In this document: in pieces, positions 4,487 to 59,903 of the stretch
Numbering within the stretch: the first letter of the stretch is position 1
How the letters are laid out: every line of letters begins with the position of its first letter
Virus record (IMG/VR): IMGVR_UViG_2872147552_000001
DNA length: 64,000 bases
Origin: a virus
Taxonomy: Duplodnaviria > Heunggongvirae > Uroviricota > Caudoviricetes
Reading direction: 5' to 3' (one strand)
Notes under the pieces: generated by a model
What the model was told of the DNA's origin: nothing
The model's database searches: none
The model's input: the letters and a program-made list of their open reading frames with translations, nothing else
Position numbers and translations under genes: made by a program

Positions 4487-4497
4487 AACAAATTGTT
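4487..4497 (-). promoter_or_regulatory. class A palindromic leader motif (AACAAnTTGTT)
   Basis: aacaaattgtt about 22 nt upstream of the start at 4465. Confidence 0.5.
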
Positions 4498-4640
4498 TTC
4501 TTGTTGGTGTTAATTATCGTTGTACGAATAAGGCGTCAAAGTGGAAAGTTGCGGTAGCCGGACGGGAACAGGTGGGTTTGTCGGTTGCCTGGAGGTAAGA
4601 GGTTGGTGTTTTTAGCCTGCGGGAAACAGGATGGTCATTT

Positions 4641-4664
4641 AAGGCCACCAGCATTGGTGGCCTT
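4641..4664 (-). terminator. conserved GGCCACC hairpin at gene 3' end
   Basis: aaggccaccagcattggtggcctt directly after the stop at 4670; one of five related copies. Confidence 0.45.
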
Positions 4665-4669
4665 AATCT

Positions 4670-4951
4670 TTAGTGGAGCAGACCGATGTCGATGGTATCC
4701 CCTGAATCATCCACACGGATCATCAGCATGGCGAAGGCGTTTAGTGGATAACTGGCGTGCCATTCAGGGAAGCGGTCATCTCGCATGAAGTCGGCAATGT
4801 CGTAAACGCATCCCTCAAAGTGGAAGAATCGCGTGCTTACCTGCTCGTCATATTCCACATGATCCATTTCTTGCTGTTCTGTTTCCGGCAAGTCCAGCCA
4901 TGATTCAAGGAATACATTTTGTGCTTTAGGGGTAATGGTGAAATCAGTCAT
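4670..4951 (-). CDS. hypothetical protein (93 aa, acidic)
   Basis: Start moved to the ATG with GAGGA RBS (MTDFTITPK...); ORF track start lies upstream of the promoter motif. Confidence 0.45.
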   Translation of the reverse strand: MTDFTITPKAQNVFLESWLDLPETEQQEMDHVEYDEQVSTRFFHFEGCVYDIADFMRDDRFPEWHASYPLNAFAMLMIRVDDSGDTIDIGLLH

Positions 4952-4970
4952 GAGCATATCCTCACTGCGT

Positions 4971-4984
4971 AAACATGTTGTTTT
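4971..4984 (-). promoter_or_regulatory. class A palindromic leader motif
   Basis: aaacatgttgtttt about 20 nt upstream of the start. Confidence 0.45.
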
Positions 4985-5111
4985 CTTGTTGGTGTAATTA
5001 TCGCAGTGTAGATAAGGCATAAAAGAAGTTAATACAGGCTGAATACACAAGAAAGGTTCTGGAAGTTGATAGCCAGGTTTCAAACTAACCTTCGGTTATT
5101 AAAAGTCATTT

Positions 5112-5135
5112 AAGACCACCAATGCTGGTGGCCTT
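5112..5135 (-). terminator. conserved GGCCACC-type hairpin
   Basis: aagaccaccaatgctggtggcctt. Confidence 0.4.
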
Positions 5136-56429: not shown

Positions 56430-56431
56430 GA

Positions 56432-57667
56432 TTAACCAAATATTTTTTGAACAACTTCACGAGCCGCTTGCGCAGAAGCTGAAGGGAGTTTGTTAATGAA
56501 AGAACGCTCAATACCTGTCACAAAGTCGCCTCGCATCATTCCAATCTTGGCCGACAACAAAAGTTCACGAGGGCCAATTGGCTGACTGATAAGGTGTTCT
56601 TCGTATCCATCGCGAACGATACCGGCAAACTTAACCATCTTTTCTGCGTATTCATCCACGATACCGGCATTTATCAACATGTTGATCTCTGCCTCTTTGC
56701 TCATGTATTTCACATTCGAAACGATGCCAAAACGCGAAAAGTTCGCGGCGTTCTGGATGTTTGTACCCTGGTACAAGCCGGTTTCATCACCAGAACCGTT
56801 TGTGTTGCCAGTGCCAATGAAAGCAAACCGTTCATGCGGAGTAATGCGACGCCATTCTGGAGTTGCCTCTTTGATGACCAACGCCTCACCTTCCAGCACT
56901 GGCTGATACACGCCAAGAATTTGTGGAAACGCAAAGTCGTATTCATCCGCGAGGTAAACCCAGCCATGCTTCATTGCGAGCGCAAGCAAGCCAGGCTCGA
57001 AATACGTAGAGCCATCACGCGCCAGAATTTGCCCCGTAACATGTGCCTCTTCCATTGATGCTGTATGTTGGGCACGGATCAACGGACGATTGAGCAAAGC
57101 ACATAGCTGTGTAGGCAATGACGATTTGCCTGTTCCTGCATGACCCCACAAATAGCCAGGTATGCCAAGTTCAAGCATCATGAAAATATCTTTGATCAGT
57201 TCGAAGTCGCCATATACGTAGCCCTTCTTCACTTCTGGAACGAACTCTGGATACGGCGTATTGACGTTTACGCTAACCATGAGCGGCGTCCCACGTTTTG
57301 TTCCGAGTTCTTCCACCGTTACGTTTAGCAGTTCGTGAGCTGCGACCAGATCTGTCTTGTACTCAACTGTGCCTGTGTAGCCTGGGCTACTGGTCAAGCC
57401 AGAAGATTTCGCCATTTCGCTTTTTTGCTCGGCACGTTTAGCTTGAATTGCATCAAGTGCCTTTTTCGATAGCGTTGGTTCATCTGGAAACTGCGTTGTG
57501 TACATTTTCAGTACGGTGTCAGGATCGGCATCTTTTACTGACTCAGGAATGCCCTCGCAATTACCATTGGCTACATGGGACTTAAAATAGTGAAATGATT
57601 TGCCGCACCACTTGCAAACAAGGTAATCAGAAGGATTTTTATCATTTTGCAGTGCAGTAGTAGTCAT
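56432..57667 (-). CDS. AAA+ ATPase, CobS/MoxR-like
   Basis: Walker A GHAGTGKSS, Walker B region, N-terminal CxxC; followed by vWA protein. Confidence 0.6.
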   Translation of the reverse strand: MTTTALQNDKNPSDYLVCKWCGKSFHYFKSHVANGNCEGIPESVKDADPDTVLKMYTTQFPDEPTLSKKALDAIQAKRAEQKSEMAKSSGLTSSPGYTGTVEYKTDLVAAHELLNVTVEELGTKRGTPLMVSVNVNTPYPEFVPEVKKGYVYGDFELIKDIFMMLELGIPGYLWGHAGTGKSSLPTQLCALLNRPLIRAQHTASMEEAHVTGQILARDGSTYFEPGLLALAMKHGWVYLADEYDFAFPQILGVYQPVLEGEALVIKEATPEWRRITPHERFAFIGTGNTNGSGDETGLYQGTNIQNAANFSRFGIVSNVKYMSKEAEINMLINAGIVDEYAEKMVKFAGIVRDGYEEHLISQPIGPRELLLSAKIGMMRGDFVTGIERSFINKLPSASAQAAREVVQKIFG

Positions 57668-57724
57668 GCGCTTTTCCTTTGTTCTCTAATGAGCGTTCAA
57701 GTTCTTATATAAATATACCATTAA

Positions 57725-57747
57725 CTATGGTAAGTAGTTACTTATCG
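57725..57747 (-). promoter_or_regulatory. class B palindrome
   Basis: ctatggtaagtagttacttatcg. Confidence 0.4.
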
Positions 57748-57762
57748 TTAAGGCTGTTTTAA

Positions 57763-59871
57763 TTACTTCAAAATGATACGAGATAGTTCAGTAACTACAG
57801 ATGAACCAAGACTATCAACACTAGTTACCAGGGCATGATTTGCGTAAAATCTCTCCGGTGCATCAGTCATGATGCCAATTGCCATCAAATCAATGTCAGT
57901 CTGCGTTTCAATTTGCTTCGTAACCGAACGCAAATGGGCGTCAAAACCTCTCCCAACAGCCCACGGCGCGCCATCGCTCAGAACAAGCATGATCTTCCTG
58001 TCCTCCAAGCGACCGGAAAATAACGATGCAAGGCTGGCTATGCTTTCACCATCCACGTTATTAAGAAGTGGGAATGTGTAGCCTACGCACCCCATACGTG
58101 AGCGAACTTCGCGAGAATTTGCTTTTTCATTCCAATTTTTGATGATAGGTAGCATTAAAGATTCAAAGCGAGAGAACTCATATTTGATAGCCTTAAGTTC
58201 TCCTGCTGCCATATGACTGCCAAATGTAGTGAAGCCGGTGATAATGTTGGGAACATTTATTCGATCAAGTGCATCGGCGATGGTATATGCACTTGCAAGA
58301 GCTAGTTTTATCGTTTCGCCACTCATTGAACCCGATAAATCAATCACTTGTTGAACACAGGCGTTAACGGCTTTAGATTCTTCTTTTTTACGAAACACGC
58401 GATCATCATTCATTGTTAATCTGTAGATACTTGAACCATGAATGCGCCCCCGACGCTGGCCAGGTATAAACTGAACTCTGTTTCTGCTTGCTATTGCACG
58501 TTCCAGGTCTTTTGCCAGCGTCGACGAAACACCTGACGAAAGGTGCTTTTCAATATATTTGTCGAAGAGTTGGTTGCCTTCAGGAACGATGCGATAACGG
58601 CTGATTGGATATCCACCTAAATCAATATCGGAGAATGTTTTAATAAGCCGTTTGATATGGGCTTCTGCCTGATCAATCGAGCCGATGAAGTCGTATGAGC
58701 GATTGTATGGCCTGTATTCGCTTTTCGAGCTTTCTGTTAACTCGCTTTTAATCGTTTCGGATAGCGCATCTTCTGTCATGCCTCCGACTTCATCTTCCAT
58801 GCTATCCAACTCCTCTAAAGCCTCTTCCAGACTCATTTTTGACGGAGTTGGAATGTCTGAAGAGCCGTCTTCTGTCGTTTTTCTTTTTTCGTGGTCAGCG
58901 GTTAATGATTCTGACGCCGCGTTATCAGAAGCATCAGAATCTGATACCGCTTTATCATTTTCTGTATCATCGAATATTGTTTCTGATGATTCAGGATTAT
59001 CTGAATCATCACTGTCGTTATTATCATGTTTGTGCTTACTATGTGACTCTGATTTAATAGATTTGTGATTATCTAACGATGAGGGTGTCTCATGATCTTC
59101 GTTGTCTTCATTGTTTTCTCCAGAGGCATCCGTCTGGTCAGCGTCTGAAGGATCGGAAGTTTTTCCCGGAGCTGACTCCTTACCTTTGCTTTCACTTTCA
59201 GTGTCTTTGAGGATCTTAGCTATGGTCGCAGCCACCTTTACACAATCCTCGGTGCAAGACATGTTACGCACGGCCACATCGATACCATGTTCTTTTAATA
59301 ATGAAATTGGTTTCTCAATGACAGGCCAATATTCATCCATGAAATCTACGAACGGTGCTTGGCCATCCCAGGCTCTTACAACCGGACAGAGAAAGAAGTT
59401 TAGAAAAAGCGCGCGCTGATCTTTGCCACAATAAGCAATAGCCTCTGAAGCCTTTGGTTTAAAGACTTTTTCGATTATAAGGCGCTGAGTTGCCATCAGA
59501 TTACGTCTTGTTCCGTTAAAGACCTGACCCATTTTTCGCTCGATGAACACGTCTTCTAAGGCATTCCATAGCGACCAGGAAGGAACGCGTCCTTTTTCTC
59601 TCATTTTGTTGGACACACGAATATCGGTAAACAAAATGTGAGCAACCTCATGATCGAGAAATCCGCGCACAGCATTCATCAATGCCGGTGTTGCGTTATC
59701 CGGGATTGATGGGATGTTTACGAGAATTGGCTCTCCATCATCGTTATAGCGTACATAAGCGTCGTCCCCTCGTTCTGCAACAGGGATGTTTTTACCTGAA
59801 AGGAGAGCGACTACTCGTTTTACACTGTCACGGAAGTCCTGAACCTCTTTGATGGAACGTTTTTTAGACAT
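57763..59871 (-). CDS. von Willebrand factor A domain protein, CobT-like
   Basis: C-terminal MIDAS motif DLSGSMSG; long Ser/Asp/Glu-rich linker. Confidence 0.55.
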   Translation of the reverse strand: MSKKRSIKEVQDFRDSVKRVVALLSGKNIPVAERGDDAYVRYNDDGEPILVNIPSIPDNATPALMNAVRGFLDHEVAHILFTDIRVSNKMREKGRVPSWSLWNALEDVFIERKMGQVFNGTRRNLMATQRLIIEKVFKPKASEAIAYCGKDQRALFLNFFLCPVVRAWDGQAPFVDFMDEYWPVIEKPISLLKEHGIDVAVRNMSCTEDCVKVAATIAKILKDTESESKGKESAPGKTSDPSDADQTDASGENNEDNEDHETPSSLDNHKSIKSESHSKHKHDNNDSDDSDNPESSETIFDDTENDKAVSDSDASDNAASESLTADHEKRKTTEDGSSDIPTPSKMSLEEALEELDSMEDEVGGMTEDALSETIKSELTESSKSEYRPYNRSYDFIGSIDQAEAHIKRLIKTFSDIDLGGYPISRYRIVPEGNQLFDKYIEKHLSSGVSSTLAKDLERAIASRNRVQFIPGQRRGRIHGSSIYRLTMNDDRVFRKKEESKAVNACVQQVIDLSGSMSGETIKLALASAYTIADALDRINVPNIITGFTTFGSHMAAGELKAIKYEFSRFESLMLPIIKNWNEKANSREVRSRMGCVGYTFPLLNNVDGESIASLASLFSGRLEDRKIMLVLSDGAPWAVGRGFDAHLRSVTKQIETQTDIDLMAIGIMTDAPERFYANHALVTSVDSLGSSVVTELSRIILK

Positions 59872-59888
59872 GGCTAATCCTTTGTTAT

Positions 59889-59903
59889 GAAAACAAATTA
59901 TTT
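59889..59903 (-). promoter_or_regulatory. class A palindromic leader motif
   Basis: gaaaacaaattattt. Confidence 0.4.

Follow-up and report, generated by a model that had tools for sequence, protein, structure and literature searches.

We examined a stretch of 64,000 nucleotides (the window) from the virus record IMGVR_UViG_2872147552_000001 of IMG/VR (Caudoviricetes) in which a short palindrome, here called the class-A motif, recurs in front of many genes. We conclude that the SSU5-like phage-plasmids of enterobacteria have, in this motif, a genuine and conserved regulatory site, which marks out a regulon of about 20 promoters. We give about an even chance to the reading that the palindrome is a DNA operator, centered at about +14 or about -38 in promoters whose -10 element is extended, for one repressor encoded by the element itself. 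Positions 3118-13610 of the window are 98.4% identical to Escherichia phage Cyrano (OV696614), and nearly the whole window is collinear with the Cyrano genome. Cyrano is an SSU5-like phage-plasmid of E. coli LF82, kept at a copy number of about 5 per cell and inducible with ciprofloxacin (PMC9928086). The Cyrano gene map was placed on the window by tblastn, and gene names with the prefix CY are taken from it. Almost every gene between about 4 kb and 60 kb is encoded on the minus strand, among them a series of single-gene accessory cassettes as well as T4-like genes for DNA metabolism. The plus strand encodes RepA, which is accompanied by iterons. The genes controlled by class-A sites are minus-strand genes.

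The core AACAANTTGTT occurs 11 times in exact form in the window compared with 0.12 expected, and the maximum in 100 shuffled sequences was one. Allowing up to two mismatches to the 15-mer AAAACAANTTGTTTT gave 16 matches where 0.87 are expected. The conserved core is 13 bp long (AAACAAnTTGTTT), and the outermost positions of the 15-mer are A or T. An earlier note on this DNA had listed the palindrome at 14 positions, all of which were recovered within 1-4 nucleotides (nt). Coding sequence makes up 83.9% of the window, and our script scored 12 of the 16 matches as non-coding (binomial p = 3e-7). The matches at 4970 and 7108 were scored as coding solely through the over-long Cyrano annotation of CY110 and CY105, for which ATG codons backed by a ribosome-binding site (RBS) are found at about 4951 and 7096. 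The last two matches (1567 and 8302) are weak, have two mismatches, and lie within coding sequence. After start-codon correction the 14 strong sites are all non-coding. Searching the window confirmed strong enrichment, and a similar density inside coding regions was not seen. The annotated Cyrano start codons seem to be too far upstream in three genes, CY110 (4951 against 5020), CY108 (5661 against 5697), and CY105 (7096 against 7117), where they take in the promoter and the class-A site; ATG codons with a good RBS lie further downstream.

Ten of the 14 sites, all on the minus strand, lie downstream of the -10 position and end 10-24 nt before the ATG. For these, the placement proposed earlier, between a -10 element and the RBS and 10-25 nt upstream of the start codon, was correct. 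It had been described as invariable, and this did not hold at 5720, 9793, 13731, and 18004, where the motif is upstream of the -10. These four sites fall outside the transcript of the flanking promoter, so the claim that the motif is transcribed into the 5' untranslated region (UTR) is wrong for them. Downstream sites with GATAAT as the -10 precede CY111 (site 4485-4499, -10 at 4513-4518, ATG at 4465), CY110 (4970-4984, -10 at 4997-5002, probable ATG at about 4951), CY105 (7108-7122, -10 at 7135-7140, ATG at 7096), and CY101 (9742-9756, -10 at 9769-9774, ATG at 9729). The hexamer is TATTAT (6651-6656) for the site at 6623-6637 before CY106 (ATG at 6612), CACAAT (22571-22576) for the site at 22544-22558 before CY87 (ATG at 22526), and TACATT (59916-59921) for the site at 59890-59904 before cobT (ATG at 59871), which has two mismatches. 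No clear -10 was seen for the site at 23273-23287 before tciA-tciB (ATG at 23249), and the -10 is weak for the site at 33488-33502 before nrdB (ATG at 33463). The tenth downstream site (45218-45232) precedes CY58, which encodes a DUF7238 protein (ATG at about 45184-45193).

Among the upstream sites, the one at 5720-5734 follows a terminator in the promoter of CY108-CY109 and is itself followed by CTGCCTTAT and TGTGAAAAT, with the -10 at 5696-5701. The site at 9793-9807 belongs to the CY101 promoter and has its -10 in common with the downstream site at 9742, so that a single -10 is flanked by two sites with centers 51 bp apart. The site at 13731-13745 adjoins a hairpin (13747-13763) and has the -10 GAAAAT at 13707-13712; its promoter is upstream of humD, and a LexA box for humD is present as well, at 13628-13643. 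The site at 18004-18018 likewise has GAAAAT as its -10 (17980-17985), and near it is a left-arm-only remnant, AGAAAACAAC, at about 17953-17962, before an open reading frame that starts at 17949. Leaders with only the left arm (AAGAAAACAAC, then TAAATAA or GGAG) were observed at about 8502-8528, 8271-8297, and 17947-17973, and the same variant also occurs in a Moellerella plasmid. This suggests that the A-rich leader is ancestral and that the right arm may be a later addition. The earlier proposal of a regulon made up of small accessory genes and nrdB is supported, and should be widened to cobT and CY58 within the window and to terS, parA, and a dnaB-like helicase gene in complete relatives.

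Class-A sites are embedded in one promoter family that has a GCCTT box, an extended -10 (TGnGATAAT), and an A-rich leader. At the downstream sites with a visible -10, a hexamer such as GATAAT is followed by a spacer of 9-13 nt, typically AACACCAACAAG, and then the motif. At the upstream sites the order is terminator or GC hairpin, motif, CTGCCTTTT, and then a -10 of the form TGnGAAAAT or GATAAT; the distance from motif to -10 is exactly 18 nt, and the motif overlaps the -35 region. We pooled 1075 unique contexts, which are not phylogenetically independent, from the window, four relatives, and 80 IMG/VR loci. In the downstream class (205 contexts) an extended -10 (TGcGATAAT) lies 12 nt before the motif (T 76%, G 80%, then c, and GATAAT at 82-99%), with AACACCAACAAG and the motif following it. 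The upstream class (110 contexts) has the mirror arrangement, the motif ending 18 nt before TGnGATAAT. If transcription starts 7-8 nt past the -10, the downstream motif would occupy about +6 to +20 (center about +14) and the upstream motif about -45 to -31 (center about -38). Conservation is nearly complete in the promoter-proximal arm of either class and lower in the distal arm (T8 70%, G10 89%, T13 85%).

Complete relatives contain 16-23 sites per approximately 110 kb compared with 1-2.5 in shuffled sequence. Cyrano has about 20, and outside the window these comprise a tandem pair preceding terS and single sites preceding parA and the dnaB-like helicase gene; there is no class-A site in the 27-kb structural block of Cyrano. 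The terS gene is the start of the packaging and structural operon, and class-A sites precede it in the complete relatives. SSU5 has about 21 sites. The same motif is found at both orthologous and non-orthologous promoters of SSU5, Klebsiella phage pJN2-26, pM1026-3Ar.4, and a Buttiauxella plasmid, and the divergent K. pneumoniae plasmid KpPF25 p2 has it with 19 exact cores. It is unchanged across relatives whose proteins are just 35-80% identical. Where sites are neighbors, their spacing in nine replicons was 51 bp in nine cases, 25 bp in eight cases, and 60 bp once. The position of a site relative to its promoter also differs between genomes. The CY106 and CY111 promoters have a downstream site in Cyrano, SSU5, and pJN2-26 (for CY111, the site orthologous to 4485 is present in pM1026 as well) and solely an upstream site in KpPF25, in which the right arm of the former downstream site has decayed. 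Depending on the genome, the promoter of the DUF4942 gene has no site, a downstream site, or both.

Among the matches listed in a scan of IMG/VR, the contigs with at least three distinct matches were 90-101 kb long, which is the SSU5-like size class, and no site of at least 17 bits was found in 602 kb of chromosomal DNA from 74 Enterobacterales species. The palindrome is missing from two distant syntenic relatives, Moellerella pW18-2-b and Pectobacterium Drgb1, which keep the same promoter family with the A-rich left arm and without the right arm. Two other replicons were uninformative. The Y. pestis plasmid pMT1, considered as a natural experiment, is recent and degraded, has just five sites, and carries a seemingly truncated FljA-like gene, and a Klebsiella p1 fragment with a ParG-like remnant is broken by insertion sequence elements.

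The earlier note had left open whether the palindrome acts as a DNA operator or as an RNA hairpin. The DNA operator fits best because the distance to the -10 is fixed and the distance to the ATG is variable (10-24 nt in the window), because one third of the sites are upstream, over the -35 region and outside the transcript of the flanking promoter, because spacings are quantized at 51 and 25 bp, and because orthologous promoters keep a site yet swap its upstream or downstream position. A free-standing hairpin is not supported. The predicted hairpin of the 15-mer has a negligible energy of -0.7 kcal/mol, and eight leaders compared with their shuffles showed no extra stability (fold z-scores -0.11 to +1.44) and no stable stem-loop. 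Among arm variants of downstream sites, G10 is replaced by A in 10%, a change that would leave RNA with a C-A mismatch, and C4 is replaced by T, which would keep a tolerated U-G pair, in just 1%. A search of Rfam returned nothing but three tRNAs and no family matching the motif.

Published RNA sequencing of the LF82 lysogen (PMC9928086, Table S1) has a background median of 9.8. In these data the genes behind class-A promoters are at background level, with values of 5-13; CY111 reaches 25. This low expression despite good extended -10 elements suggests that something keeps class-A genes off in the lysogen. Regulator-like genes that are expressed there include the XRE-type repressor CY45 (96), the parA-CY29 operon (50-89), and the FljA-like gene (18), and CY123, CY37, and ParB are at background level.

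These observations are consistent with a model in which class-A sites would be bound as DNA by a single repressor of the phage-plasmid, probably in the form of a dimer or a pair of dimers. The palindrome has two fixed positions within a single conserved group of sigma-70 promoters of the extended -10 type, where the bound repressor may block either the binding or the escape of RNA polymerase. In this way about 20 promoters would be kept shut in the plasmid (lysogenic) state, namely those that drive the single-gene accessory cassettes, nrdB, cobT, the dnaB-like helicase gene, parA, and the terS packaging and structural operon.

Candidates for this repressor can be ranked. We place CY29 first, CY106 and CY111 second, and CY62 third. 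CY29 is encoded outside the window just after parA; its gene overlaps the stop codon of parA, and the two are translationally coupled. A class-A site is present at the parA promoter in all class-A genomes examined, and CY29 may be autoregulated through it. From its sequence CY29 looks like a ParG/omega-type ribbon-helix-helix (RHH) protein, with a weak match to an archaeal RHH family; the β-strand and second helix predicted for it do not differ between Cyrano, SSU5, and KpPF25. CY106 (6301-6612, minus strand), a small basic protein, is a weak candidate that is found only in motif-bearing genomes and always with a class-A site at its own promoter. CY111 (3983-4465, minus strand) is a weak candidate with the same phyletic and self-site pattern. 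Searches of PDB sequences with CY29, CY123, CY111, CY62, and the FljA-like protein returned nothing significant. Several other proteins were considered and rejected as binders. SSU5 has no CY45 yet has its 21 or so sites, and it also has no TciA. The plasmid pM1026-3Ar.4 has kept at least 14 sites and has none of CY37 (small and winged-helix-looking), CY59, and CY101. A system of the ParB/KorB-parS type was rejected since the ParB homologs CY119 and CY120 are present in the motif-free Moellerella plasmid and are at background level in the lysogen; the motif-free Pectobacterium element also carries annotated ParB genes.

Several points weigh against a DNA operator. No DNA-binding protein could be tied to the motif, and the sole strictly co-occurring protein with a nucleic-acid-binding pedigree is an FljA-like RNA binder. 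The ParG-like protein, CY123, which resembles winged helix-turn-helix proteins, and ParB all persist in the palindrome-free Moellerella and Pectobacterium elements; the Moellerella homolog of CY29 keeps the same β-strand residues, yet there are no palindromes, and its parA leader has direct ATAACAAGG repeats alone. CY106 has no recognizable DNA-binding fold, and none was recognized in CY111 either, and CY37, CY59, and CY101 are dispensable for the sites as judged from pM1026-3Ar.4. A simple symmetric dimer would also predict something other than the stronger conservation, seen in the aligned sites, of the promoter-proximal arm in both site types. Finally, one or two sites are inside operons just before an RBS with no visible promoter (at the end of the DHFR gene in pJN2-26 and KpPF25), a placement that suits a role at the RNA level.

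Such a role is the basis of the main alternative, which we regard as possible but rather unlikely and in which the class-A motif is an RNA operator for the FljA-like protein, acting as a global post-transcriptional repressor of the element. The FljA family is reported to bind the leader of fliC mRNA, with FljA blocking translation and triggering decay of the mRNA. The window encodes a member of this family at 1013-1615 on the plus strand, with a full-length match to PF03614 (E = 2.5e-84), making it the candidate binder at the RNA level; its product is 99.5% identical to a counterpart in CP053388. No solved structure of the family was found by sequence search, and modeling predicts a tandem Hfq/Sm fold with two Hfq-like domains, consistent with RNA binding. 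The protein would bind the 5' leader (AAG-AAAACAAnUUGUUUA, from about +6) beside the Shine-Dalgarno sequence, leading to a translation block and mRNA decay. The gene is present in every motif-bearing genome examined and absent from both palindrome-free syntenic relatives, and this co-absence is the strongest argument for an RNA operator. The Moellerella and Pectobacterium plasmids form one clade, however, so that the co-absence is effectively a single evolutionary event. Immediately in front of the dnaB-like helicase gene, each has a small gene for a single-domain Hfq-like protein instead (L296/L295 at 48354-48575 in Drgb1 and L203 at 12297-12527 in pW18-2-b); in the enterobacterial clade the helicase gene is preceded by a class-A site and not by this Hfq-like gene.

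The distribution of the FljA-like gene among hosts also suggests a target on the element. It is found in 834 plasmid records, including 345 from Klebsiella and 62 from Y. pestis, both of which are non-flagellate, and its retention in hosts without flagella means that the target is probably on the element itself. In the lysogen the gene is expressed at about twice background and in other conditions it is higher, and low lysogen mRNA from the class-A genes would also fit translation-coupled decay. Ten of the 14 window sites are in leaders, 0-14 nt from the RBS, but this placement fails at the four upstream sites of the window and at the upstream-only CY106 and CY111 promoters of KpPF25; approximately one third of sites are upstream of the -10, after terminators, and hence outside the regulated transcript. 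Upstream sites would have to be secondary, for example acting on read-through transcripts or 3' ends. The fixed distance to the -10 with a variable distance to the AUG, the swapping of positions at orthologous promoters, and the exact spacings of 51 and 25 bp, which point to DNA geometry, all weigh against an RNA operator; a single-strand binder of the Sm type needs no exact reverse complementarity, and the hairpin is negligible. The FljA-like protein of KpPF25 is down to 36% identity with the motif unchanged, which also made co-variation of protein and motif uninformative. We recovered the fliC 5' UTR of Salmonella and Citrobacter (...CCCAAUAACAUCAAGUUGUAAUUGAUAAGGAAAAGAUCAUG). The Salmonella leader has CAAGUUGU after an AAN-rich tract, at a distance from the AUG similar to that in class-A leaders, but it scores just 5.7 bits against the motif matrix and was rejected as a strong class-A site. 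The resemblance is a hint, nothing more. We consider it similarly doubtful that the FljA-like protein is a tandem-Hfq pseudo-hexamer that recognizes one leader on about 20 mRNAs, among them those for packaging, partition, and replication, with FljA, the repressor of flagellar phase variation, as its domesticated relative or the reverse. If it is the binder, this would explain why a gene for a "flagellin repressor" is kept in non-flagellate hosts, and temperate phages would, as far as we know, gain a new case of global repression at the RNA level.

Two further explanations have a low probability. One is that a host transcription factor recognizes the motif and that the element uses this factor to sense the state of its host; Enterobacteriaceae would share the factor, and Morganellaceae and Pectobacteriaceae would lack it or have a different one. 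It would account for a motif that is invariant across elements whose own candidate regulators are just 35-55% identical, and for the fact that the motif-bearing elements all come from Enterobacteriaceae or are pMT1 of Y. pestis, both motif-free ones being from other families. We consider it improbable, given the lack of sites in the chromosomal DNA scanned and the restriction of multiply matching IMG/VR contigs, among the matches listed, to the SSU5-like size class; we know of no enterobacterial factor with this consensus. The motif differs from the LexA (SOS) box CTGT-N8-ACAG. About as improbable, in our judgment, is that there is no dedicated binder and that the palindrome belongs to a promoter-leader cassette spread by duplication and recombination that acts in cis, for example on promoter escape, on the stability of the mRNA 5' end, or as a recombination hotspot that shuffles accessory cassettes. 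Conservation of the whole module (GCCTT box, TGnGATAAT, and AACACCAACAAG spacer) and not of the palindrome alone would fit this, as would the promoters of Moellerella and Pectobacterium that have the A-rich left arm without the right arm, and the left-arm-only leaders in the window near 8502 and 17950. However, the right arm exactly complements the left, and the palindrome has been retained in two unrelated positions and as tandem pairs, also in front of core genes with otherwise diverged flanks, which is the signature of a recognized site.

The DNA operator reading has precedents in the dispersed operators of global repressors, such as C1 of P1, KorA and KorB of RK2, and omega of pSM19035 with its heptads. 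In these, as in the class-A regulon, many copies of one short operator overlap or flank promoters over a replicon of about 100 kb and bring maintenance, replication, accessory, or lytic genes into one regulon. The OB site of KorB is likewise palindromic over 13 bp, with any base allowed in the center, and there are copies centered near -39; omega is an RHH partner of a small ParA as well as a global repressor, as proposed for CY29. The class-A sequence is unrelated to all of these operators, and P1 C1 sites are asymmetric. KorB acts from variable, distant positions, whereas class-A sites are at two fixed positions, and omega binds arrays of 7-10 heptads, whereas class-A sites are single inverted pairs with a hypothetical binder. 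The FljA-fliC operator of Salmonella phase variation is similar in that the window codes for a protein of the FljA family, the majority of class-A sites are in 5' leaders, after the start of transcription and ahead of the Shine-Dalgarno sequence, and the fliC leader has its AAN-rich tract followed by CAAGUUGU. It is unlike the class-A system in that FljA has one known target rather than about 20, one third of class-A sites are not in leaders, the match of the fliC leader is weak, and most plasmid hosts have no flagellin to repress. The (ARN)n and U-rich sites of Hfq are another parallel, since the FljA-like protein is predicted to consist of two Hfq-like domains and the palindrome-free relatives have a single-domain Hfq-like gene. 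The class-A leader AAC-AAG-AAA followed by UUGUUU resembles the distal-face and proximal-face motifs of Hfq. Unlike the class-A motif, Hfq sites need neither dyad symmetry nor a fixed distance from a promoter, and binding here is a prediction.

Phage-plasmids of the SSU5/pHCM2 type are very common in Klebsiella, E. coli, Enterobacter, and Salmonella, with approximately 800-1000 records in the plasmid collection. The family includes pMT1 of Y. pestis and, judging by its name, at least one carbapenemase-carrying member, vB_Kpn_1825-KPC53. In the searchable literature we found no description of this motif, of the regulon, or of SSU5-type regulation. The class-A motif defines a testable regulon and promoter family in which accessory cassettes, where one might expect anti-defense genes, are connected to the late operon and to nucleotide metabolism, replication, and partition. 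It therefore provides a direct experimental handle on the switch between plasmid and phage lifestyles of SSU5-like elements.

Other features of the window were observed. It lacks CYRAN_43 (about 62067-62157, corresponding to 40268-40822 in Cyrano), the gene of Cyrano with by far the highest expression in the lysogen (about 700 times background). Together with further differences from Cyrano at 567-1925, 13610-14525, and 16575-17975, this absence indicates that the window comes from a close mosaic relative of Cyrano. The repA gene (42139-43194) is flanked on both sides by CTATAGTGG iterons at 41979-42050, 42993-43001, 43268-43276, and 43412-43420, and four of the iterons at repA have a spacing of 21 bp. 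Many accessory cassettes are closed by a GC hairpin, (TTAA)GGCCAC-N-GTGGCC(TTAA), without a U-run (4643-4662, 13747-13763, 35898-35917, and also about 5100 and 18025); two of the upstream-type class-A sites directly adjoin a copy.

A second recurrent palindrome, TA(A/G)GTA-N2-6-TAC(T/C)TA, occurs at 6219-6232, 19196-19213, 24165-24182, 26381-26398, 31220-31233, 40610-40627, and 57731-57744. It is found in promoter regions of DNA-metabolism genes and on both sides of the divergent promoter from which CY45 (60434-60820), the XRE-type repressor, is transcribed. Looser copies are near 35920, 44420, 46370, 51150, 51620, and 60200-60430. This TAAGTA..TACTTA type of palindrome is probably the operator of CY45; it is present in KpPF25, with looser copies in Moellerella, and both have a CY45-like gene. 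LexA-type boxes (CTGT-N8-ACAG) occur at 13628-13643, before the umuD-like gene humD, and at 61947-61962, in the intergenic region 61919-62128 beside the start of the integrase gene. They fit the reported induction of Cyrano by ciprofloxacin. A third match, at 6483-6498 inside CY106, is probably due to chance. Lastly, a long AT-rich palindrome, CCTGCTTC(C/T)GTATATAT...ATATATACGGAAGCAGG, some copies of which enclose a AATAAGTAACTTATT core, was found in at least three places, at 25698-25750 of the window, across the end and start of the Cyrano record upstream of the terS promoter, and upstream of CY31, and may be a late-activator or packaging-related site.

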